From positions 1 to 46,323 of the IMG/VR virus record IMGVR_UViG_3300037467_000877: a stretch of DNA of 46,323 nucleotides, one strand, 5' to 3'. This stretch comes from a virus. Lineage: Duplodnaviria; Caudoviricetes. The translations under genes and the position numbers were made by a program. This document shows, one piece after another, positions 2,069 to 44,557 of this stretch (position 1 is its first letter; each line of letters starts with the position of its first letter). The notes below the pieces were generated by a model that had not been told where the DNA came from, made no database searches, and saw only the letters and a list, made by a program, of their open reading frames with translations.

Positions 2069-2337
2069 ACGGCGAGGCGGTATCTGAATTTCGAGCGCTG
2101 CTAGTCGGTGGACCGGGCTGCCTGATTACCCGCGAGGGTGGGACAGCCACAATTGACAAGGTCTACTTCGACGAGCGCGGATTTGACCTGGGTGAAGGTC
2201 CCGACCGAGCCATCAGTGGCCTCAAGGTCGAGCGGGCCCACTACCTGACCCCCGACGGGTTGCACCTCTGGCTGACGAAGTCCTGGCACGTGTTCATCCC
2301 CAGCAGCTCACTTAGAGCCTGCTACCGGATGGCTTAG
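1885..2337 (+). CDS. Hypothetical protein overlapping the GNAT gene
   Basis: GAGGT SD 6 nt before GTG1885; globular-looking C-terminal half fills 2068-2337. Confidence 0.55.
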   Translation: MGNGTEAAPKARARKAVADGSQRPSGDSGSVVDARQPGPATESTAGSSNPPTTKAVPLFQVDGEAVSEFRALLVGGPGCLITREGGTATIDKVYFDERGFDLGEGPDRAISGLKVERAHYLTPDGLHLWLTKSWHVFIPSSSLRACYRMA

Positions 2338-2436
2338 CCAGGAGTGGTCCTAACCACCTATCGCCTGGCACCCTTGACTCCCAATTTAACTACGGAGCAC
2401 CGCGTTAGCAAGGCCTAATCGCAGTGCCACTGGACG

Positions 2437-7210: not shown

Positions 7211-7255
7211 GCGGACCACTAAGCCCGCTAGCTCACGAAATAGGAGGTCGCTCAA

Positions 7256-8551
7256 ATGGCGACCGTTCTTGGCGACGTTCAATGGAACGCGCTTCTCAAG
7301 GAATTGTATCCCGACGGGCTCCCCGCCGAGATCATGATGCGCAAGCACGTCCTTCTGTCCAAGTTGACGAAGGATGGTGATGCCTACGGCGACCACATGG
7401 TCATTCCTGTGGTCTTCGATAACCCGGCTGGTCGTAGCGCGGATATCGCGTCCCTGCTCGGCACCAATGGTCCGATTGCTCCTACGCAGTCGGTGAAGTT
7501 CCTGGTCTCGCTGTCCAGTGACTACGCCGCGACGTGGATTAACGAGCTGACCATCCGCAAGGCGGCCAATGACCGTGGTGCGTTCGTCAATGCCCGCAAG
7601 TTCGAGGTTGACGGCCTGCTCCGTCAGCTTGGTAACTCGCTGGCGCACGCACTCTATCGTGCTGGTGACGGCACGGTGGGCCAGGGCGATGGCGCATGGA
7701 CCATCACTGGCAAGGTTATCACTCTGAAGACTCGTGCTGACGCCAAGTTCTTTGGCATCGGCATGCAGTTGGACTTCATCGCGAACAGCTCAGGCAGCCC
7801 GAATGGCTCGCCTCGTGCTCTCGCGGCCACCTACCGCGTGGTTGTCACGGCGGTCGACGAGGATGGCGGCAAGATTACGTGTGCCAAGGACGCCAATGGC
7901 GCTGCGGTCACGAATATCTCGTCCTACTACACCTCGCTGGCCAACGATGACTTCATCGCGCCGGTTGGTGACTACAACAGCGCGTATGCGACGACGGGTG
8001 CTGTCAAGGTCCGTGGCCTCGCGGCCTGGATTCCGCTGACGGCGCCAGTCCTGGGTTCGGACAGCTTCTGGTCTGTGGACCGTGGCGTTCACCCGACCCG
8101 CCTGGCTGGCTCTCGCCTGAATGACTCCACGGCTCCGGCCGAGGACAGCATCATGGCGCTTGCCGAGGTGATGCACGAGCGTGGTGCGAACCCGGACATC
8201 GTCCTGATTTCGCCGCGCCAGTTCACCAAGATTAGCAAGCGGCTTAACGCCAAGGTCGAGTACGAAGGTGCGGGTGGTGAGGCCAAGTACGGCTTCATGA
8301 CCTTTGCCATTGCGACCTCGGCGGGCATGCTGCCGGTCTACGCGGACCCGGACTGCCCCGAGGACCGTGGCTACATCCTCACGATGGACACGTGGCGCAT
8401 CAAGCACCTCGGTCTGCCTGAGATTGTGACCACGGACGGCCTGAGCGCACTCCGTCGGCCTGGTCTCGACCAAATCGAGATTCGCTGCCGGTACTATGCG
8501 CAGCTGGTTTGCTACGCGCCGGGTGAAAACGGCGTCTTCGCTGTGTCGTAA
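7256..8551 (+). CDS. Major capsid protein
   Basis: 431 aa after the scaffold, strong AGGAGG SD, N-terminal LKELY motif, strongly biased codon use. Confidence 0.85.
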   Translation: MATVLGDVQWNALLKELYPDGLPAEIMMRKHVLLSKLTKDGDAYGDHMVIPVVFDNPAGRSADIASLLGTNGPIAPTQSVKFLVSLSSDYAATWINELTIRKAANDRGAFVNARKFEVDGLLRQLGNSLAHALYRAGDGTVGQGDGAWTITGKVITLKTRADAKFFGIGMQLDFIANSSGSPNGSPRALAATYRVVVTAVDEDGGKITCAKDANGAAVTNISSYYTSLANDDFIAPVGDYNSAYATTGAVKVRGLAAWIPLTAPVLGSDSFWSVDRGVHPTRLAGSRLNDSTAPAEDSIMALAEVMHERGANPDIVLISPRQFTKISKRLNAKVEYEGAGGEAKYGFMTFAIATSAGMLPVYADPDCPEDRGYILTMDTWRIKHLGLPEIVTTDGLSALRRPGLDQIEIRCRYYAQLVCYAPGENGVFAVS

Positions 8552-8552
8552 G

Positions 8553-8668
8553 GCATAGCCCCGACCTAACCCTCTAGTTGGGTTGGGTCCTGTTGAGCGA
8601 CCCTGACAGAGCTATGCACCCATCTTGGTACCAAAGGTGGTGAGTGCGTCGGGGTCGCCCAAGAGGGC
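8553..8668 (+). ncRNA. Candidate structured cis-regulatory RNA with pseudoknot or alternative pairing
   Basis: Pairings 8553-8559/8611-8617, 8563-8572/8580-8589, 8590-8595/8604-8609, 8620-8627/8634-8640 and 8597-8607/8648-8658. Confidence 0.55.
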
Positions 8669-8685
8669 CTAACCCGGAGAAGAAC

Positions 8686-9120
8686 ATGACTAACGAAACT
8701 GTATACCTTAACCCGGGTCGGTTCGTCATCGAGGGCACCTTTGATGTCGACACCACGGGCGCGGTCCTTAACCTGACGATGCCCAATGGCGGGACCAAGA
8801 CGGTTCGAGGCCAACACATGTCGGTCGTCAAGTCCGGCACTGGCCAGTACGACGTCACGGTCAAGCTGGCATCCGCCCTGGATGGCAAGCCGGTGTTTCA
8901 GCCGGTGGAGCTGCTCGACGGTACTGCCAAGCTGATTGCGGCCACGGTGGCTACGGCTCTGGGCGCCCGCGTTGCGTCCGTTACGACTGACTCGAACGGC
9001 AACATTGTCATTCGCGTCTTGACCACGGGCTCGACTGGTGCTGCGGCGGACACCACGGCGGCTGTGACGGTTGGCTTCATGGCGGTCGTTTGCACGGTTC
9101 GCCTGGACCCGGTGTTCTAA
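8686..9120 (+). CDS. Virion protein (possible capsid decoration or head protein)
   Basis: GGAGA SD before ATG8686; T/V/G-rich beta protein directly after the capsid gene. Confidence 0.7.
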   Translation: MTNETVYLNPGRFVIEGTFDVDTTGAVLNLTMPNGGTKTVRGQHMSVVKSGTGQYDVTVKLASALDGKPVFQPVELLDGTAKLIAATVATALGARVASVTTDSNGNIVIRVLTTGSTGAAADTTAAVTVGFMAVVCTVRLDPVF

Positions 9121-20313: not shown

Positions 20314-20751
20314 GTGTCGTACATTGGTAGCAACACGCGCCGCCTTTTTGGTGGCAAGCCGGACACTGCGAACGGCAGCGCCCCGGACATCCGCAATCTA
20401 AACACGGTTAACCAGCTCCAGGCCGAGAGCATTACCGCCACCTGCGCCCGTATGATGCGCGGGCCGCGCGCCAATGGCCACATGTCGGCTCACATCATTG
20501 TGGGCGCCGGCTCGTCACCAGTGGGCACTCTGACGGTTGGTTACTCGAACCTGCCGGACCCCGACCCGGCCAATGACGCACACTGGGTACCGGACGCGAA
20601 CGTCAGCTCGGTGGACTTGTCGGTCGTGGCCAACACGTTCCTGAACCTGGGTAACATTGACGCGGAGTACGCTCGCTTCAAGGTTACCTACACCTCGGGC
20701 ACTATCTCGCTGATTGTGTTCGTGCGGGCCGAGGGCCTGGAGCCTCGCTAA
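20314..20751 (+). CDS. Putative virion protein (beta-sandwich)
   Basis: Ends with YARFKVTYTSGTISL, a pattern common in small phage structural beta proteins. Confidence 0.6.
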   Translation: MSYIGSNTRRLFGGKPDTANGSAPDIRNLNTVNQLQAESITATCARMMRGPRANGHMSAHIIVGAGSSPVGTLTVGYSNLPDPDPANDAHWVPDANVSSVDLSVVANTFLNLGNIDAEYARFKVTYTSGTISLIVFVRAEGLEPR

Positions 20752-22334
20752 TGCGTGGGTCGCGCGCGGGCTCAAGAGGCAGCCGGCTAGTTGGGTCGGC
20801 GGTCGGGACCTCTAGCGATGATGAAGCTGCTGGCACAACCAAGAAGCTGGTCCTTTTGTGGGGCCAGTCTAACTGCACTGGCGAGGACGATTACGCCAAC
20901 AGCACCAATTCCAACGGCTACGTGAACAACTACACGCCGGTAACCATGACCCAGTGGATTACCGCTGGCGTGTCCGACCCGATTGCCTGGGTGAAGCAGG
21001 GTACCACGGCAGCGCTCGCACCCCGGGCTGCAGCCGGCACCCCTAACTTCGGTGCTGAACTATCACTTGGTCGACACCTTAACCGCGTGCTGCCCAATTC
21101 CTGGGTCATCTCCAAGTGGGGCATGACTAGCTCGGACCTAGCGGTCAACTGGCTGCCAACGGGCACGTACCCAACCAGTCCGGCGGGTAGCCCCAACCTG
21201 TTCACCCAGGCCATGCACGACGCAGCGGCGGTGGCTGCCGCTAACAACGCTACCGTCTCGGCTCTGGTGTGGATTCAGGGTGAGTCCGATGCACTCGATG
21301 CCACCAAGGCTGCCAATTACCAGACTAATCTCCTGGCGCTAATCGCCGCCGTTCGTGCTGTCTACCCAAACCTGCCGGTAGTCATTTCGCGCATCCCGGC
21401 GAGCAGCCCGGAAGCAAACAACACGGCGGTCTACAATGCGCAAACTACCGTGGCGGGCAGTACTCCGCATTGCGCTCTGGTAAACACGGACGACCTGACG
21501 CCACTGATTACGACGTATCACTTCAGCGCCAACAACCTGGTGACCCTGGGTAATCGGCTAGCGTCCTCGTTGCTCGGACTACTGGGCATCCCCGACGTCT
21601 TTCCGTCGCTCGCCTGGACAACCGATGGCGATGGCATCGGGTTTCCACAGAACGCCACCGAGTGGGCCGCAGTCATGGCGGCAGCCGGCATCACGTCCGG
21701 TGGACCATTCCGGGCATCGGACTGCACGGTCGTATCGGGCAACCTGCCTGACCTGATTGGCTCAGTGCCACTGGTGGCCAGCGGGACCGGAGTGACGTAC
21801 CGCGCGACCGTACCCGGCTTTACTCGGGTTGGGCTGTCCACCCCAGACTTAGCAGCGGCCAGCTTTGCCACGGCGGACGCTTCCCTGCCGAACATTGCTA
21901 CCACCAGCATGCTGACGTTGACCTACGTGCGCGTCAATTCCTCGCCAGGGTCGTGGCGCAATTTGACATCGCTGGGAGCGGCAGCCAGCCCACGAGTAAA
22001 GTCCAGTGTGAAGGCTGGAGGCGTTGTGGACTACTTTGATGGCAATACCAACCATACAGCCGGCGTCGCTGTATTAACGGGGGCAGTTCGGCCGATTGTC
22101 ACACAACGCAATGTGACAGCACAGGTATCACGGTTTGCCAGCGACCAGGAAACAGTTACGGCCACCTGGGACCCGACGGTGACTGGCAAGGGGCTATCGA
22201 TTGTCGGCGACACCAGCAAAGCTCCCAATGGAGTGACCATGTACGAAGCCTCATTTGCGGGGGCTGCTGCCGAGTTGTCCTTGACCCAAATCAAATCACT
22301 CCTCACTACCCTCGGGTGGGTGCTGCAGTACTAA
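20751..22334 (+). CDS. SGNH/sialate O-acetylesterase (SASA)-domain protein, probable tail spike or receptor-modifying enzyme
   Basis: WGQSN, FGAEL, WIQGESDA and a C-terminal His (TTYHF), followed by a beta-rich domain. Confidence 0.8.
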   Translation: MRGSRAGSRGSRLVGSAVGTSSDDEAAGTTKKLVLLWGQSNCTGEDDYANSTNSNGYVNNYTPVTMTQWITAGVSDPIAWVKQGTTAALAPRAAAGTPNFGAELSLGRHLNRVLPNSWVISKWGMTSSDLAVNWLPTGTYPTSPAGSPNLFTQAMHDAAAVAAANNATVSALVWIQGESDALDATKAANYQTNLLALIAAVRAVYPNLPVVISRIPASSPEANNTAVYNAQTTVAGSTPHCALVNTDDLTPLITTYHFSANNLVTLGNRLASSLLGLLGIPDVFPSLAWTTDGDGIGFPQNATEWAAVMAAAGITSGGPFRASDCTVVSGNLPDLIGSVPLVASGTGVTYRATVPGFTRVGLSTPDLAAASFATADASLPNIATTSMLTLTYVRVNSSPGSWRNLTSLGAAASPRVKSSVKAGGVVDYFDGNTNHTAGVAVLTGAVRPIVTQRNVTAQVSRFASDQETVTATWDPTVTGKGLSIVGDTSKAPNGVTMYEASFAGAAAELSLTQIKSLLTTLGWVLQY

Positions 22335-23862: not shown

Positions 23863-23891
23863 GCCCGGCCCTGGAGAGGGGTCGGGCTTTT
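23863..23891 (+). terminator. Rho-independent terminator at the convergence of the two genome arms
   Basis: GCCCGGCCC/GGGTCGGGC stem followed by TTTT. Confidence 0.8.
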
Positions 23892-23896
23892 GTCGT

Positions 23897-24211
23897 TTAA
23901 TTGGGCTGGCAGTAGCAGTGGTTGCCGGTCGCGTCTACCCTGTGGGTTCCAGCGGGGCACGCCGAGTGGTCGCAGTTCAGCTGGCAGTGATATGTCCCGT
24001 CGGGGTACGGCGGGCTGTTATCGTCAACCACGCACCACGCTGTGGGGCTGCAGGCGGTAATGACGGTCGAGTAGTCCGGCGTACACGGGTCACCCACAGC
24101 TGGAGCGTCTGGGGCAGCGTCCGCGACGATCGGCACATCCGGGGGCGCATCCTGGGCCGGGGCTCGGTCGGACCCACACGCCGCCAGTACTACCACGAGA
24201 ACCGCCCGCAT
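23897..24211 (-). CDS. Cys-rich lipoprotein
   Basis: MRAVLVVVLAAC lipobox, DAPPD/DAAPDA linker, eight further Cys. Confidence 0.75.
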   Translation of the reverse strand: MRAVLVVVLAACGSDRAPAQDAPPDVPIVADAAPDAPAVGDPCTPDYSTVITACSPTAWCVVDDNSPPYPDGTYHCQLNCDHSACPAGTHRVDATGNHCYCQPN

Positions 24212-26017: not shown

Positions 26018-27424
26018 CTATTTGCACTCTTTCCAGTTGGCACCGTGGTGTCCCTCAGCCCTAAGCGGGCACATGAGCTTCACCGTCTCGCACATCAGGT
26101 AGTGAACCCTCGCCAGGGCCTTGTCCGCATTTTGTTCTGGCACCCAACCCACAATCTCGTCGTGGACCACGAGGCTCACGACGTACCCCAGCTCTCGCAG
26201 CTCAGGGTCATTGGCGATAGCCACCAGGGCCAGGGCCATAATCTCCTGGCCGCCGCCCTGCATCGGGTAGTTGAGTGCCTGCCGCCACGCCCGGTTTCGC
26301 CACCCCTGCTTTGGGCTCTTTGCGTTCGGCAGTGGCTGCCACCGACCAAAGAGCGTCATGATGTAAGCTAGTCGCTCGATAAGGGTACGAACGAACGCTT
26401 GATACTTGGGCACCCCCGGATAAAACTGGTCCAGACCATTCGACAGAAGCGCCGCTCGCTCCAGCCCCAGCGGGGTCCCGTCAGGTAGGAACGTGGACCA
26501 CGCGAACCCCGGAATGGACTTCCCATAGTACTTGCCGTAGATACCAATCTTGCCCAGGTCACGAAGGTCGGGCCTAGCCTTCTTGAAGTCCTTGAGCGGG
26601 ATGCCAGCCACCGCCGGGTCCCCTGCCAGCTCCCCGAAGATGTAACGCGCTGCAGGACCGTGGATGTCCTCGCCCGACCGGACTCGCTGGACCAGCGGGT
26701 CGTCCTCCCCGAACAAAAGCGCAATGAGGTGAGCCAGGATGACCACCTCAAGCTGCGAGTAGTCCACCACCACCAGCCGGTTGCCAGGCGGGGCCACGAA
26801 CGCTCGCCGCATTCCTGCCGGGTCCTTGGCCGGATTCCTGGGGACCTGGTTCAGGGGCGGGTTCTTAACGCCAAACCGACCCGTAACCGCGCCCGGCCTC
26901 GTGTCGTAGTCGCTCGCCATCCCGAACGTCGGGTGGAGGCGCCATGTACCGTCAGGGTGAAGGATAGCGGATGCGAGCCAATCACGCGCGTACCGGCCCA
27001 TCCGCTCGCACTGGCGCAACTGCCTGAGGACGTTAATCGCGTCCCGGTGGTCCTTGTTGTGCCCCGCAATCCATTCGAGCGCACGGTCGTCCGTGCTGAC
27101 CTTGTCATCCGGGACCTCCCCCTTCTTACAATACGGACTCTGCTCCAGCCCCAGCCCCGGCGGGTCCTCGTCCGGTTTGTTGTGCAGCCACGCCGCCAGC
27201 TGCTGCCACGAATTCCAGTTGATGTCCCGTGGAGCCCACTGGCGTAGTTCGGCTCGCAGCGCCTCAGAGCGAGCGGCCATCCGTGCCTCGATATCCCGAA
27301 GGACCTCCAGGTCGACCGGACAACCGGCCCGCTCCATCCCAATGACGACTTCACCTACTGGGGCCAGGATTCGTTTCTGATACTCGGCGGCCGTCAGGGG
27401 CTCGGGTACAATCGCTGCCGCCAC
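26018..27424 (-). CDS. polA: DNA polymerase family A, polymerase domain
   Basis: TGRF....PPLNQVPR, motif A DYSQLE, motif B RDLGKIGIYGKYYG, NYPMQG, motif C VHDEI; AAGGGAG SD before GTG. Confidence 0.92.
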   Translation of the reverse strand: MAAAIVPEPLTAAEYQKRILAPVGEVVIGMERAGCPVDLEVLRDIEARMAARSEALRAELRQWAPRDINWNSWQQLAAWLHNKPDEDPPGLGLEQSPYCKKGEVPDDKVSTDDRALEWIAGHNKDHRDAINVLRQLRQCERMGRYARDWLASAILHPDGTWRLHPTFGMASDYDTRPGAVTGRFGVKNPPLNQVPRNPAKDPAGMRRAFVAPPGNRLVVVDYSQLEVVILAHLIALLFGEDDPLVQRVRSGEDIHGPAARYIFGELAGDPAVAGIPLKDFKKARPDLRDLGKIGIYGKYYGKSIPGFAWSTFLPDGTPLGLERAALLSNGLDQFYPGVPKYQAFVRTLIERLAYIMTLFGRWQPLPNAKSPKQGWRNRAWRQALNYPMQGGGQEIMALALVAIANDPELRELGYVVSLVVHDEIVGWVPEQNADKALARVHYLMCETVKLMCPLRAEGHHGANWKECK

Positions 27425-28224
27425 GGATACTCCCTTACTCGTTCCCGCTGATGGCGCATCCAGTCCACCAGCTCAATGCCTCTCACCGCATCAGCCAGTG
27501 AGTAGCCCCACCAGGCGTCCAGCCGGTCGAGCGCCTGCCCATTCCACACGAGCGGGGGCAAGACAGCATCGGGCACAAAGTCCGTCACCGCCAGCTCCCG
27601 GTCTTCGATATGCGGGATGGGCGTGAATACCTTCCACGTAACCCGAAGATGGGGCCGCCACACTCCATCATCGGCCAACCACTCCGACGTCCCCTTGGCG
27701 TGACAGGGCGTCCGACCACATATGCAGCCCTTGTGAACCTTCCGCCGCGCACGCTGGACCTCGACCTGGTAGCTCACCATGTCAGTGAACGACGGCCGGG
27801 GCCCGTACCCGAGCGCCCACTGCTCGGCACCCTTCAACCCGTAGTCCCTCATGCCCGGGACCAACACGCGCAAGTACTGGAGGCTGTCCTCTAGTCCCTG
27901 AATGTCGACCCCTTCATTGTTGAGGGCGTGTCGATCGTGCGGGGCGTTGTGGGCCCACTTGCGAATCGCCGGGTCGACCAGCACCCCGCGAATAGCAGGA
28001 TGAAACAGAGCGGCAACAGGAAGTACTCGGCCGACCGCACGCCTGAATCCGCGAGGGCTGCGCTCACTAGTAAGGACACCCACGCTCCAGCAATGGACCC
28101 GAGCGCGGTGCTGCGGGCTAGTCTTGTCCGGTTGCCCATAGGTCTCCGTGTCAATCCCAAACTCACCAGCCTTCACGAGAGCAGCGGCGAGCTTGTCCCA
28201 CTGCTCCGGCTTGTCCAGCCACAC
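27394..28224 (-). CDS. 3'-5' exonuclease domain of a split family A polymerase
   Basis: ExoI GIDTET, ExoII AHNAPHD, YGLK, ExoIII YSLADA. Confidence 0.85.
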   Translation of the reverse strand: MWLDKPEQWDKLAAALVKAGEFGIDTETYGQPDKTSPQHRARVHCWSVGVLTSERSPRGFRRAVGRVLPVAALFHPAIRGVLVDPAIRKWAHNAPHDRHALNNEGVDIQGLEDSLQYLRVLVPGMRDYGLKGAEQWALGYGPRPSFTDMVSYQVEVQRARRKVHKGCICGRTPCHAKGTSEWLADDGVWRPHLRVTWKVFTPIPHIEDRELAVTDFVPDAVLPPLVWNGQALDRLDAWWGYSLADAVRGIELVDWMRHQRERVREYPWRQRLYPSP

Positions 28225-28236
28225 GAGGGCGACCCC

Positions 28237-29247
28237 TCAGAGCGTGAGCAACTGCTGCCCCTCGACCACCTTGCGGTTATTCGAGGTGGACTGAATATAC
28301 AGGTCGTACTGGTCGAGCTTGGCAGGATGCAGGCGAATCTTGCCGGTCTCGGGCAGGCCCATCAGGGACCGCACGCTCCGGCTGCCCTGGCGGTATTCAC
28401 CCTTGGCCTTGATGTAGACCACCAGCTCCTTGCTGTCCTGCAGGTACTCCGGCTTCACCAGCTGGTAGTAGTGGTTGCCCTGCTCGAACGCGCGCCCGTA
28501 GAAGTCGGCAATCGTGCGTCCCGCCATGTGGCGCGTCACGGTGCGGACCTCGCGCGGGTTGACGGCCTTGGTATTAGCCTTGATGCCCGCCGGGGTAATA
28601 GCCCCGAGGTTGTCCGTCGAGTAGAAGCTGGTCGAGCGAGTGGCACCCACCCGACGCTGGTCGACGTAGGTCTGCAGCGCGTTGGTAGTAGCGGCAGCCG
28701 TCGCCTGCAGGCCCTGTTCGGACCCGTCCCAATCCCGGAAGTTGGCCGCCGGGATACCCACGTCAGCCAGGTGGTCACGCGCAATCGCCGGCCCAGCGAG
28801 CGTAACCGTCAGGTCACCCCGGGCTTCGAGCTTGGTCAGGAGCGCCGTCAGCCGCGCGATGCTGTACTGATACGAGTGATTCTCGCCGCCATCAGTGAAG
28901 ATGGACACCAGCTTGGCTTGTGCCGTGCTCTTCTCAGCCAACTCCAGGGCCCTACCGATGGCGTCCCGCAGCGCCGTCATGCCGCCCAGGTCGTTGTAGT
29001 GCGCAATCGACGACGGCCAGCCCGTGACGACTTCTAGTGGACGCTGAGCCTTGAGCTGCCCCACCAGACTGCCAAACGGGATGACCGTAATCCGAAACTG
29101 ACTTGGTTCGGTCTGACCGGCGTACTGCTTCTCCTCACGTGCCAGCAGGTCAGCCATCTCGTAGACCATCTTGCGCGCTGTCGCCGTCTTGTGCTGGTCC
29201 ATGGACGCCGACTGGTCCAGGACAATGTAAACGTCAGTGGTCCTCAC
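28237..29247 (-). CDS. von Willebrand factor A domain protein
   Basis: MIDAS motif VLDQSASM, GMTALRDAIG, IFTDGGEN; additional C-terminal domain. Confidence 0.85.
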   Translation of the reverse strand: MRTTDVYIVLDQSASMDQHKTATARKMVYEMADLLAREEKQYAGQTEPSQFRITVIPFGSLVGQLKAQRPLEVVTGWPSSIAHYNDLGGMTALRDAIGRALELAEKSTAQAKLVSIFTDGGENHSYQYSIARLTALLTKLEARGDLTVTLAGPAIARDHLADVGIPAANFRDWDGSEQGLQATAAATTNALQTYVDQRRVGATRSTSFYSTDNLGAITPAGIKANTKAVNPREVRTVTRHMAGRTIADFYGRAFEQGNHYYQLVKPEYLQDSKELVVYIKAKGEYRQGSRSVRSLMGLPETGKIRLHPAKLDQYDLYIQSTSNNRKVVEGQQLLTL

Positions 29248-29516
29248 GCCTTCCTCCATTCAAAGACACTAAGGTCGCCAGGGTCTGGAGTGTACTCAGA
29301 CCATCCCTGCCACTCGCCGTGGCCACGAGTAATCACCATCCCAAACTCCTCGGCAATCCGGCGAGCTTCGGCCCATGTTTCGTCGTCTATCTCCGGGTTG
29401 GTGCGATCGTAGAAATCGCCCCCGCCGGTCAGCACCAATTCATTCTCGTCAATTTCGTAGACATGATACGACTCGGCGTACTTCTCGAACCGCGTACCCT
29501 TGGCACTGTAGCTCAC
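29244..29516 (-). CDS. Acidic hypothetical protein
   Basis: Coupled ORF within the operon. Confidence 0.6.
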   Translation of the reverse strand: MSYSAKGTRFEKYAESYHVYEIDENELVLTGGGDFYDRTNPEIDDETWAEARRIAEEFGMVITRGHGEWQGWSEYTPDPGDLSVFEWRKA

Positions 29517-29734
29517 AGGGCCCTCCGTCGAATGAAGATAGGCTCCTCACGAAGGTTGAGGGTCACCTTGATGACCGAGTCCCCGTCCGTGCGAGCATGG
29601 TTCTGGGCTGCCCCAGCCGTCTTGTAGAGGGTGCCGGCGCTCTTGCCAGACCCCTTGAGGTTGCCGTCCTTCGTGATGATGGCGTACATCACCCGCTGGC
29701 CCGGAACCTCCATGTGCAGCTCAACCTCGGCCAT
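29513..29734 (-). CDS. Hypothetical protein
   Basis: TAATG coupling with the upstream ORF. Confidence 0.6.
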   Translation of the reverse strand: MAEVELHMEVPGQRVMYAIITKDGNLKGSGKSAGTLYKTAGAAQNHARTDGDSVIKVTLNLREEPIFIRRRAL

Positions 29735-29991
29735 TAGTGTGTCAATCCTGAGTACGGACACTTGCAGGTCGGGCACTCGTCGGGAACCGGGCGCCCCTTG
29801 GTCAGGGCCAGCAGCAAGTCGACACGAGCCGCCTCGGCTGCACCCAGCGAGCCCTGGCTGATGGCCACGGTTAGCTCCTCAAGCAAGCTGTCCCACGGCT
29901 CACCCACCGCGTCCCCAACGTAGTTCTCGATGGCCTGCCGGAGGTCGCCCATGAGTTGAAGCTCGTGGTGCGACAATGGGCGCGAAGTCAT
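29734..29991 (-). CDS. Hypothetical protein with C-terminal CxxCxC
   Basis: Coupled ORF. Confidence 0.55.
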   Translation of the reverse strand: MTSRPLSHHELQLMGDLRQAIENYVGDAVGEPWDSLLEELTVAISQGSLGAAEAARVDLLLALTKGRPVPDECPTCKCPYSGLTH

Positions 29992-30851
29992 GGGTTCAGC
30001 AGTGCTGTCAGTGCCTCGACAGCGCTGGTGGGCTTAACGGGTTCATCTGAGATTGCCGTCATGGCCTCGAAGCGCGACCGCACCTCGGGAATGGACGTTC
30101 CCAGCAGAACGTGTGCACAAAATGCCTCCTTCAGGTGGGCCAGCGTGAGTGGCAACCCATCAAGCCCCGCCACCAGCTCCTCGGCCGGCTGCGGGCCCTC
30201 GGGGTTCCGCGCCTGAAGCTCCCGCAGGAACGCCGTCTGGATGACAGGGCTAATACGGTCAATCAGCACCACCCGGTCAAACCGCCCTGGACGATTGGCC
30301 AGGCGGGGCGTCATCTTCTCCTTGTGGTTCGTCGTCACGACCACCACGAGCCCAGAGACAGCGCGCGTACCGTCCAGATAGGCCAGCACTTGGGAGTTGT
30401 CCAGGTGCTTCTCGTCGGGGTCCTCCATTAGGACCATGATGCCCCGGCCGGGCTCATGCACCTTCATCCACTCGATGCCCAGCGGCATGTAGAAGGGGTC
30501 ACGGCACACCAGCACCACGCCTCCGTCATCGGTGAACGCCTTGACGATTTGCTGGGCGATGCTGGACTTGCCGGTGCCCTGGGGGCCGTACAGCAGATAG
30601 CCGCGCTTGTGGGTAAAGCCGTATCGAGCGAACGCCTCACGCTTAGCCATGAAGCTGCGCATGTCGGCAATCACGTCATCCGCAGCCGTGCCAGGCAGAA
30701 TCAGCAACTTGTCCGACAGCAGCTTGGTGGCCACAATCTCGGTGTTGCCGTCACCGTCCTGGTCCACCACGTACGTCCCCGCCGGTAGGCCACTCGAAAA
30801 GTCCGACGCCGGACGATACGTCCCGTTCTTGGTCACCGCATACTTGGTCAC
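29988..30851 (-). CDS. AAA+ ATPase (classic clade, BCS1-like)
   Basis: RGYLLYGPQGTGKS, Walker B VLMED, LDG, TTNH, RPGRFD second region of homology. Confidence 0.88.
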   Translation of the reverse strand: MTKYAVTKNGTYRPASDFSSGLPAGTYVVDQDGDGNTEIVATKLLSDKLLILPGTAADDVIADMRSFMAKREAFARYGFTHKRGYLLYGPQGTGKSSIAQQIVKAFTDDGGVVLVCRDPFYMPLGIEWMKVHEPGRGIMVLMEDPDEKHLDNSQVLAYLDGTRAVSGLVVVVTTNHKEKMTPRLANRPGRFDRVVLIDRISPVIQTAFLRELQARNPEGPQPAEELVAGLDGLPLTLAHLKEAFCAHVLLGTSIPEVRSRFEAMTAISDEPVKPTSAVEALTALLNP

Positions 30852-38943: not shown

Positions 38944-40002
38944 TCAGTTAAGGGTGTCGTCCGAGTCCGATGCGGGCTTGGGTAACGGAATGACGGTCGC
39001 CATTACCCGCTGGCCAAGCGCCGATTGCTCCGCTCCGGGCGCGATGTAAGCCGTCCTGCTGACCTCGGGCAGGTTGCGCAATGTCGCGGCTACGGCCTCG
39101 GTGGGCATGGCGGCCACAGCCAAGGTCGCCCACGTCCCGCGAAGCCCGTGAGGGGACACCTTCGGCACCCCACTGACCTTGCAAAGACGAGGGACGTTGC
39201 GTCCAAGCCAGTGGCGATCGACGTTGCCCCACAATCGGTCCTCGGGCCCCTTGCCTTCGCACTGGCGCACCAACAAGTCCACCAACACGCCCGGCACCTC
39301 CAGCCGCTTGCGAGACCGCGCGGTCTTGAGCCGACGCACGGCATTGTCCTCAATCCAGATGATGCGCCCGCCGTCGTCGATATCGCGCACTACCAGTCCA
39401 GTGACCTCGCTGGCCCGCATGCCCGTCAACAAAGCCAAGGCGCACGCCAGCCCCTCGGGCGACCCCTCACGGAGGGCCGCATCCAGGAACCGACGCGCCT
39501 CGTCCACACGCAACTGTGGCTTACCTGCCGACCGGTCACCGAGCACCACGCAGCCTTCGAACGGGTCAGACGGCAACCGACCCTTCGCCACCCACCACCG
39601 ACAAGCCCGACCCACTGTGGCCAGCTCGCCCACCAACGTGTCCGGCTTGACCTCGGCCGCACGCAAGTCAAATAGGTGCTTCGCCACAGCCCTGGTTAGA
39701 CCACTCAGCGGCCGGTCACTCTCGGTCAGGCGCAGAATTGCCACCAGCCGCCAGCGCTCCAGCTTGAGCGTACTACCCCGCAATGCGCGCCCGGCACTTG
39801 ACGGCGCGGCCCTGGCTGTCAGGTACTCGGTCACCGCGTCCCCGAGCGTGAGCCCGTCGATGACTTTGCGCGCCTGGTCAACGTACTTGCTGGCCTCTCG
39901 TTCTGTCTCAAACGAGACCACCGATTGCGTGCCATCTCCAGCAACCTCAATGACTCTCCATCGCTTTCTGTGCTTGTAAGGTCCATGGATTCGTTCGGCC
40001 AC
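38944..40002 (-). CDS. int: Tyrosine integrase
   Basis: TGMRASE (R), LKT (K), HGLR (HxxR), catalytic Tyr in SRTAY; next to attP. Confidence 0.9.
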   Translation of the reverse strand: MAERIHGPYKHRKRWRVIEVAGDGTQSVVSFETEREASKYVDQARKVIDGLTLGDAVTEYLTARAAPSSAGRALRGSTLKLERWRLVAILRLTESDRPLSGLTRAVAKHLFDLRAAEVKPDTLVGELATVGRACRWWVAKGRLPSDPFEGCVVLGDRSAGKPQLRVDEARRFLDAALREGSPEGLACALALLTGMRASEVTGLVVRDIDDGGRIIWIEDNAVRRLKTARSRKRLEVPGVLVDLLVRQCEGKGPEDRLWGNVDRHWLGRNVPRLCKVSGVPKVSPHGLRGTWATLAVAAMPTEAVAATLRNLPEVSRTAYIAPGAEQSALGQRVMATVIPLPKPASDSDDTLN

Positions 40003-43631: not shown

Positions 43632-44027
43632 TCACGGCATTACCCCGCGTTCGGAAAATGACAGGTAGGAAGGCCGGCGCTTGCTTCCTACAATTAGATG
43701 GTCCACAACCGGAATGCCAAGCACCTTGCCAGCCTCGACGAGCCGGGCGGTTAGCAAGTGGTCTTCAGGACTAGGCTCTACATTGCCGGTAGGATGGTTG
43801 TGAGCCACCACAATTCCGGCGGCATTCCGTCTGACAGCCTCGCGAAACACATCACGAGGGTGTACTTCGACCGATGACACCGTGCCAATGGCCACTACAT
43901 GGGCTCCGATTAGCCCATTGCGTGCATTGAGCATGATGACCACAAATGTTTCCTGTTGGGCCTTCACTAGCTTGGCCGCTACTTGCCAGGCTTCATGAGG
44001 ACCATTGAGCGTATCCCCGGCTCTCAT
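43632..44027 (-). CDS. radC: RadC-like JAB/MPN domain protein
   Basis: E.F.V..LN..N, VHPRDVF..A, AHNHPTG...PS.ED, DHLIVG. Confidence 0.9.
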   Translation of the reverse strand: MRAGDTLNGPHEAWQVAAKLVKAQQETFVVIMLNARNGLIGAHVVAIGTVSSVEVHPRDVFREAVRRNAAGIVVAHNHPTGNVEPSPEDHLLTARLVEAGKVLGIPVVDHLIVGSKRRPSYLSFSERGVMP

Positions 44028-44557
44028 GCCTTCCCCCTCACCACAACCCACGCTACGGCCTGCAGCCGCGCCACGGTGGTCCGAGCGTAAGCAGCTGCAA
44101 TGGTGAGCGCGTTTGCGATGGTCTGGTAGGCCTTCTCGGTCACACTACGAGTCCAACCGATAGCCCGTAGCACCCACACATCCACAACTGCCGCGCGCTC
44201 GTCGCCCATGATGGCTCGATAGAACGCCCGGGTCTTAGGACCACTCAAAACGTCAAGAGGCCTGGCCCCTGCCGCGATAGCACGAGCCTTCGCCAGTGAT
44301 GTGCTAAACACGCCGGGCACGGATTCTGCCCCTGCCATGACGGCCTCAGCCGCGCGGATGTTAGTGGTCCAATGCAACCGAGGGGACAATGCCGCCACCA
44401 CACCGGCAACAGTGGTCACTTTTGCATTGTGGTCCTTAGCAATGCGACGGCACTCACCCTTTGCAGTCTCGTACCACGAGTTACCTGCAGCCTTCGTAGC
44501 TCGGTCAGCGCTCGCCCAATGGGCCAGCAACCGACGCACCATTGTCTGAACGCGCAT
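44024..44557 (-). CDS. Phage early protein with helix-hairpin-helix-like motifs
   Basis: WY..A, AALSP...W..N, LSGPKTRAFY, VVDVW..RA, LQAVAW; GGAGG SD. Confidence 0.7.
   Translation of the reverse strand: MRVQTMVRRLLAHWASADRATKAAGNSWYETAKGECRRIAKDHNAKVTTVAGVVAALSPRLHWTTNIRAAEAVMAGAESVPGVFSTSLAKARAIAAGARPLDVLSGPKTRAFYRAIMGDERAAVVDVWVLRAIGWTRSVTEKAYQTIANALTIAAAYARTTVARLQAVAWVVVRGKA

Follow-up and report, generated by a model that had tools for sequence, protein, structure and literature searches.

A covarying two-state RNA element between the major capsid gene and the next gene of an uncultured tailed phage

Genome setting of the post-capsid gap

An excess of capsid protein, of which hundreds of subunits are made, over the downstream virion proteins of the same operon is usually ascribed, in phages without their own polymerase, to a leaky terminator. 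The gap that follows the major capsid gene of the uncultured phage described here, extending from the capsid stop codon (ending at 8551) to the next ATG (8686-8688), raises the question of what RNA structure it harbors and how this might bear on the expression of the genes on either side. The window, namely the complete 46,323-nt stretch of IMG/VR record IMGVR_UViG_3300037467_000877, is a complete-looking phage record in which profile searches identified a terminase, a portal protein, a family A polymerase and an integrase, while no RNA polymerase family was matched among the 59 window proteins scanned. A tyrosine integrase is encoded at 38944-40002, making it likely that the phage is temperate. 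The family A DNA polymerase (26018-28224, - strand) is split into two adjacent ORFs, comprising the exonuclease part and the polymerase part, VWA-domain and AAA ATPase genes neighbor each other at 28237-30851 (- strand), a RadC-like JAB protein is encoded at 43632-44051 and a tail protein (20751-22334) carries a sialate O-acetylesterase domain. The gap is flanked by two genes:

7256..8551, + strand: major capsid protein gene, SU10-type, 431 aa, with the stop codon TAA at 8549-8551
8686..9120, + strand: next gene, encoding a 144-aa all-beta stand-alone protein without a Pfam or PHROG family

The capsid protein was assigned on the basis of matches to Pfam SU10_MCP (e-value: 2.6e-9) and the PHROG 14242 major head protein (e-value: 6.6e-5), and has 255 relatives in the protein collection. 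No relatives were found among 50,697 (cultured) phage records, and a search of GTDB genomes with the capsid protein returned a single marginal match of 32 residues. Matches sought with the amidase and polymerase for a host signal were absent or distant, and no sequence variants were observed across four DNA sequencing runs, no RNA run being listed for this stretch. The 144-aa protein is a small beta-sandwich, the fold of which shows middling similarity (Z: 4.5-6.7; rmsd: ~3.5) to H-type lectins and to the C-terminal domains of tailspikes and tail fibres, while a Foldseek search with this protein gave nothing at an e-value of 0.001. It is likely, or at least plausibly, a virion surface protein required in fewer copies than the capsid. 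Stop codon read-through or frameshifting into the gap was rejected, as all three frames stop or close soon after the capsid stop codon, bar a short lead-in to the next gene.

Folding of the gap

The gap folds with a z-score of -4.66, none of 200 shuffles being as stable, and has the lowest GC-corrected energy among 1155 segments of 130 nt on the + strand. The second rank in this + strand scan is held by positions 29921-30090. A preliminary description, drawn from the sequence alone, had proposed that the gap forms a three-way junction with a pseudoknot, serving as a nuclease block, a switch or a ribozyme. A sequence check located all the strings on which this model was built:

8553-8559/8611-8617, + strand: stem P1, paired solely in partial transcripts and not conserved
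8563-8572/8580-8589, + strand: 10-bp stem, corresponding to the helix A:B below
8590-8595/8604-8609, + strand: CTGTTG/TGACAG stem (P3)
8620-8626/8634-8640, + strand: CCATCTT/AAGGTGG stem
8652-8658, + strand: GGGTCGC, the claimed pseudoknot strand
8657-8668, + strand: GCCC-AAGA-GGGC hairpin

Although every stem is present in the sequence, the nested part of the junction as drawn reaches -45.8 kcal/mol and the best fold with P1 forced -55.1 kcal/mol, against a minimum free energy (MFE) of -66.9 kcal/mol, so that the junction is 12-21 kcal/mol less stable than the best fold. Folding of the full gap assigns a pair probability of 0.000 to P1, to P3 and to the GCCC hairpin. The helix taken for a pseudoknot has a pair probability of 1.0 as an ordinary stem segment within one long hairpin (8580-8675), and overlaps the GCCC hairpin, while 8580-8589 pairs with 8666-8675 (probability: 0.997), a pairing absent from the preliminary description. 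The junction is the MFE fold for transcript prefixes ending at 8618, 8623 and 8643, and as such may form briefly during transcription; furthermore, P1 is a 7-bp match that was equalled in 8 of 300 leader shuffles. However, an analogue of P1 with at least six Watson-Crick pairs occurs in none of eleven homologues, and the P3-like hairpins seen in five of the eleven are each weak and lie at differing offsets. Comparison of the window against Rfam 15 yielded no match at gathering score, giving no support to a ribozyme-like or xrRNA-like fold, and up to an e-value of 10 returned two chance miRNA hairpins alone (e-values: 2 and 6.9), far below threshold. The junction and its pseudoknot are thus extremely improbable as the functional fold. 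What stands of the description is that the RNA is structured and unrecognised, given its folding z-score, the covarying helices presented below and the lack of an Rfam family.

Two alternative helices conserved with covariation

Viral, metagenome and genome collections were scanned for related loci, giving 21 distinct loci including the window, with 35-100% capsid identity and readable sequence after the stop codon. Five further loci with ~25-32% capsid identity have a gap too short for any element. Contigs ending at or before the stop codon (L012/L037, L026, L039), an N-terminal piece (L006), a marginal match (L048) and duplicates were dropped. The full element is found in 12 of the 21 loci, which were chosen by eye and anchored on segment B, eleven by pattern and L003 by hand, and share the order A-loop-B-(variable hairpin)-A'-SD-AUG. 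Its parts in the window are as follows:

8563..8572, + strand: segment A, forming the 5' side of helix A:B and beginning 11 nt downstream of the capsid stop codon
8580..8589, + strand: segment B, shared strand with the consensus GGKTYGGG, which partners A or A'
8588..8595, + strand: pyrimidine-rich tail that follows the G run in B, a putative weakened U-tract and/or RNase III proximal-box region
8590..8665, + strand: inner hairpin, differing between relatives in both sequence and length and including the 'pseudoknot' helix and the CCATCTT/AAGGTGG stem
8666..8675, + strand: segment A', a look-alike of A that pairs with B at the base of the long hairpin and directly adjoins the Shine-Dalgarno (SD) sequence
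8676..8679, + strand: Shine-Dalgarno-like GGAG of the next gene

The loop between A and B measures 4-11 nt, except in L002 where an inserted hairpin brings it to 24 nt, and the inner hairpin ranges from 32 to 89 nt. The A:B hairpin, with 8-11 bp, is GC-rich and follows soon after the stop codon, as fits a terminator hairpin. Across the twelve anchored loci 95 of the 96 core cells are paired in A:B and 130 of 132 in B:A', while A and A' differ at 44 positions, at 29 of which both still pair with B. As the registers were chosen for best pairing, shuffle controls were run: in none of the twelve loci did more than 8 of 500 shuffles match the pairing of B:A', and that of A:B was matched by no more than 8 of 300 in eight loci, the counts for the other four being 13, 23, 29 and 38 of 300.

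Covariation was assessed in a sequence-only MAFFT alignment of nine loci, from which the misaligned L003, L004 and L022 were left out and in which L002 and L005 are one column off in one arm each. Against shuffles that take no account of relatedness, B:A' (89.6% paired; two-sided changes in 9/16 pairs) was reached by 0/500 on all five measures. A:B (90% paired) was reached by 0/500 shuffles for the covariation score and 2/500 for cells with a two-sided change, but is the weaker helix in that four pairs show a two-sided change, which 35/500 shuffles attained. Both helices also outperform slid registers in this alignment. Covariation in homologues, which the preliminary description had asked for, is present in A:B and B:A'; its notion of a switch was sound insofar as two alternative pairings are real, but the pair that covaries is A:B versus B:A', another than that proposed. 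G-U pairs outnumber A-C combinations by 19 to 1 in A:B and 23 to 1 in B:A', which points to the + strand RNA as the acting molecule. A reading of A and B as a DNA operator was discarded on the basis of the same 19 to 1 ratio and of loops of 4-24 nt, one carrying an inserted hairpin.

Nearest-neighbor predictions at 37 °C place the two states within -0.6 to 5.6 kcal/mol of each other across the twelve loci, with B:A' favored by more than 1 kcal/mol in nine and A:B equal or better in L005, L017 and L023. In folds of transcript prefixes A:B is kept until A' is nearly complete, whereafter B:A' dominates in 10/12 loci. The sequence of the apex appears to be free: L017 (298-429) and L030 (970-1078) have capsid genes that are 96% identical over 285 nt and are identical for 46 nt from the stop codon, including A:B, yet their inner hairpins are unrelated. 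We conclude that the gap holds a real, covarying and uncatalogued two-state RNA element, and not the proposed junction.

Distribution and likeness to terminators

Aside from the twelve loci with the full element, L030 has A:B on a contig that ends before A', six of the 21 loci (L015, L019, L025, L038, L040 and L041) carry a plain hairpin followed by 5 T in 8 at the same site, and two (L009 and L013) contain neither. In a capsid tree of 20 rows, from which L025 was left out as it comprises 28 residues only, the element is restricted to one 16-row clade (support: 96/99). Nested within this clade are L013, L015 and L019 (GC content: 45-47%), where the capsid stop codon is followed by a plain terminator in L015 and L019 and a degenerate weak hairpin in L013. 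This low-GC subclade may mark a change of host. That six relatives carry such plain hairpins where the others have the element, two of them inside the element-bearing clade, argues for an origin of the element from a terminator. An endonuclease VII gene (PF02945) is inserted between the capsid stop codon and the element in two loci (L001:4276-4605; e-value: 9.5e-19, and L005:3952-4284; e-value: 6.9e-16); it is free-standing and its stop codon falls inside segment A.

A covariance model built on nine loci recovers the held-out L030 (e-value: 2e-4), and, with filters off only, weakly recovers L022 (e-value: 0.027) and L004 (e-value: 0.4), while L003 is missed; as such the family is loosely defined in sequence. 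A motif scan of viral contigs with one strict pattern gave 33 matches, of which one was a known locus and the others were mostly coding or unrelated; when rescored with model R1 none was better than an e-value of 0.086, giving no evidence of the element outside the family. Second copies sought in five records returned weak matches only (e-values: 0.09 and 0.2), located before the terminase gene and lacking a partner for B, so that one copy per genome was found. These weak matches, at window positions 2238-2354 (e-value: 0.2) and G002:C1:2566-2629 (e-value: 0.09), contain A-like words in the pre-terminase gap.

The tail after B has 4 T in 8 in the window, below the threshold of at least 5 U in 8 for a U-tract, and the terminator scan made no call here. 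At least 5 T in 8 follow B in three of the twelve loci (L024 with 7; L005 and L028 with 5) and at most 4 in the other nine. Taken together, the 96 positions after the G run of B in the twelve loci nevertheless comprise 47 T, 80 pyrimidines and no A. The 96 paired positions that follow contain 17 T, while a set of 554 background hairpins is trailed by 1.5 T per 8 and the plain terminators by 5 per 8. No T occurs in the 8 positions after the long B:A' stem. The statement in the preliminary description that there is no U-tract therefore applies to the window copy, with its 4 T in 8 after the G run, but not to the homologues, across which the tail is T-enriched. The base composition suggests that the tail is a weakened U-tract, that it provides the C-U-U side of a proximal box for RNase III, or that it does both. 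A canonical terminator-like site was identified elsewhere in the window, the only one in the + strand scan:

23863..23898, + strand: plain hairpin with a T-tract, resembling an intrinsic terminator, where the + strand gene block ends

The G-rich word of B recurs in the 3' arm of this site, whose T-tract starts like those of L015 and L019.

The long helix and its relation to RNase III sites

In all twelve predicted folds B:A' extends into a helix that continues for 20-29 bp until first interrupted by more than 3 nt (26 bp in the window; 20-21 bp in three loci). An idealised RNase III substrate has 22 bp (PMC3867540), and a near-continuous helix of about two turns (~22 bp), the length of an RNase III site, is thus present throughout the twelve. 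It is this constant helix, combined with a free apex sequence, that suggests RNase III as the enzyme involved. Proximal and distal box preferences have been formulated for E. coli (PMC1540722), and B. subtilis sites show similar ones (bioRxiv 2023.03.12.532304), although natural E. coli sites match the box rules poorly (PMC5371410). The summed E. coli box scores, under rules that may not be those of the host and in a scan whose skipping of mismatches flatters the result, reach 47 of 72 against 43.3 ± 2.0 for pair-order shuffles (56/1000), and the distal-box A is not conserved. The predicted cost of releasing the downstream product after a modelled cut is lower with A (2.6-8.8 kcal/mol) than with A blocked (7.6-21.3 kcal/mol) in 12/12 loci.

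The element belongs to no Rfam family, its tail falls short of a plain terminator's U-tract, and of the features of an RNase III site the length is the one clearly present. An ordinary terminator or RNase III site had been named as the finding that would speak against the preliminary description; the evidence leans towards a hairpin derived from a terminator and of RNase III size, while the plain-terminator test for a U-tract failed. The supposition that the structure sets the ratio of capsid to downstream expression agrees with its placement between the capsid stop codon and the next SD sequence, and the effect on the ratio would follow from the mechanism suggested below.

Proposed mechanism and its alternatives

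The reading that we favor, with slightly less than even confidence, is that a weakened post-capsid terminator gives rise to read-through RNA that refolds into an RNase III substrate, and that A retakes B after the cut, capping the capsid mRNA and freeing the SD sequence of the next gene. In computed folds A:B is the best structure for almost every partial transcript up to the synthesis of A', and with its pyrimidine tail it would pause or weakly terminate the host RNA polymerase. Once A' has been transcribed, B:A' is predicted, with the backing of covariation, to be favored by a few kcal/mol and to extend the inner hairpin to at least 20 bp. Host RNase III would then cut ~13-18 bp above the base, at a rough guess near 8595 in the 5' arm and 8661 in the 3' arm. 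Separation of the products is computed to be cheapened by A, such that the capsid mRNA would end in the protective A:B hairpin while the downstream piece would start ~25 nt before the AUG with A' and the SD sequence open. The net effect would be the production of capsid in excess of the downstream virion proteins from one operon. The two folds and their energies come from computation, with covariation in support, whereas we infer the termination, the cleavage and the effect on protein ratios. Several observations speak against this reading: A:B is near its shuffles in four of the twelve loci and equal to or better than B:A' in three, the box score only slightly exceeds shuffles, the tail in the window is a poor U-tract and the genome has one copy of the element, whereas some phages punctuate many genes with RNase III sites.

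The element might instead act uncut as a translational gate, in which B:A' would block ribosome entry at the next gene until strand exchange with A reopens it; A would be covered by ribosomes that reach the capsid stop codon, shutting the gate and making downstream translation inverse to that of the capsid. In keeping with this, A' ends 10-17 nt before the AUG, the A:B state leaves more of the -20..-1 zone unpaired and opening of -22..+3 in uncut RNA is cheaper with A than with A blocked, each in 12/12 loci; the states are nearly isoenergetic, and A starts 7-14 nt after the stop codon in eight of the ten loci without an inserted gene and overlaps the stop codon of the inserted gene in the other two loci. 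The A-dependent drop in release and opening costs supports the favored reading and the gate alike. A lies, however, 29 and 72 nt past the stop codon in L023 and L028, respectively, covering the stop codon and 13 nt raises the opening cost in just 8/12 loci and lowers it in three, and a gate leaves the constant helix of at least 20 bp and the T-rich tail unexplained, which together make it unlikely. Doubtful, too, is a leaky intrinsic terminator acting with an exonuclease barrier only, where B:A' insulates or stabilises the read-through RNA uncut. The site is that of the plain terminators in six relatives and parallels the T7 terminator directly after the capsid gene (gene 10), with read-through to the later genes (bioRxiv 10.1101/106799), A:B resembles the window terminator at 23863-23898, and L024, L005 and L028 have 5-7 T in 8. 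Yet nine of the twelve tails have at most 4 T in 8, and A' would dismantle a protective hairpin without evident use, although B:A' covaries more strongly than A:B.

A combination of cleavage and gating, in which ribosomes ending capsid synthesis cover A and so favor the RNase III-sensitive fold, while strand displacement by A expels the downstream fragment once the RNA is cut, seems to us rather improbable. If true, the capsid message would count its own translation and license the downstream virion genes, and the clade would possess, in place of a former terminator, a natural and conserved device based on strand displacement. A very improbable alternative is that a double cut frees the hypervariable apex as a trans-acting small RNA. 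The apex is wholly different between near-identical phages and the inner length varies from 32 to 89 nt, but it shares no sequence or target among the loci, and a free apex is also expected where structure alone is constrained. Its one candidate target is discounted below.

Antisense control of the capsid start was rejected. Positions 8593-8602 are perfectly complementary to 7246-7255, a 10-nt segment that directly precedes the capsid AUG. Among 416 background segments 1% attain such a match, but the analogue is lacking in 5/5 homologues, where the longest match is 5-7 nt, and the complementarity was treated as chance. The capsid AUG itself lies in a small hairpin (7246-7264).

Comparison with known systems

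Covarying intergenic RNAs beside head genes also include the catalogued phage motifs GP20 and Mu-gpT-DE, the latter of which we take to be a post-capsid RNA motif; unlike these, the present element is matched by no Rfam 15 model, whether at gathering score or up to an e-value of 10. GP20 motifs and candidate RNAs near head genes have been described (PMC10690425). Five contig identifiers were not found in the searchable part of the supplements to that study, and no description of the element was found in the open-access literature, although it may be listed in those supplements. The main text of PMC5737381 contains neither 'gpT' nor 'capsid'.

The element adds an uncatalogued covarying RNA family, and the swapping of a terminator and a two-state hairpin at the same site within one clade offers a clean natural comparison. 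If the favored mechanism holds, the duplicated arm makes an RNase III cut stabilising, with built-in release of the product, and a compact part of ~60-130 nt with a free apex could serve as a stoichiometry module.

In phage lambda, the tI/sib region forms a terminator hairpin in terminated RNA and a longer RNase III substrate in read-through RNA, and the cut at sib removes the protective hairpin and destabilises the int mRNA. Here, both A:B arms would stay on the upstream product, so that the geometry predicts the opposite outcome, with the hairpin restored. T7, which uses a phage polymerase, keeps its terminator apart from its RNase III sites, whereas a single element here appears to merge the terminator and processing roles in two folds. 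T7 likewise has RNase III hairpins between its genes, cleavage being a prediction in the present case. A leaky stop right after the capsid gene, putative in the present element, with the downstream genes expressed by read-through, is a further likeness to T7 (bioRxiv 10.1101/106799). The RNase III sites of the E. coli pflB-pflA and ahpC-ahpF intergenic regions have a stabilising effect on the upstream message. They share with the mechanism proposed here read-through past a terminator or gene boundary, a long hairpin, and a cut that is proposed both to leave behind a 3' hairpin with a protective role and to set subunit ratios (PMC5371410). The difference lies in the protective hairpin, which here would be restored through exchange of the duplicated arm (A/A') after a predicted cleavage, and in the arrangement, which here is conserved with covariation across a phage clade. 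By analogy, the element may be likened to the post-capsid terminator and a processing hairpin of T7 fused into one, and to the mirror case of lambda sib.
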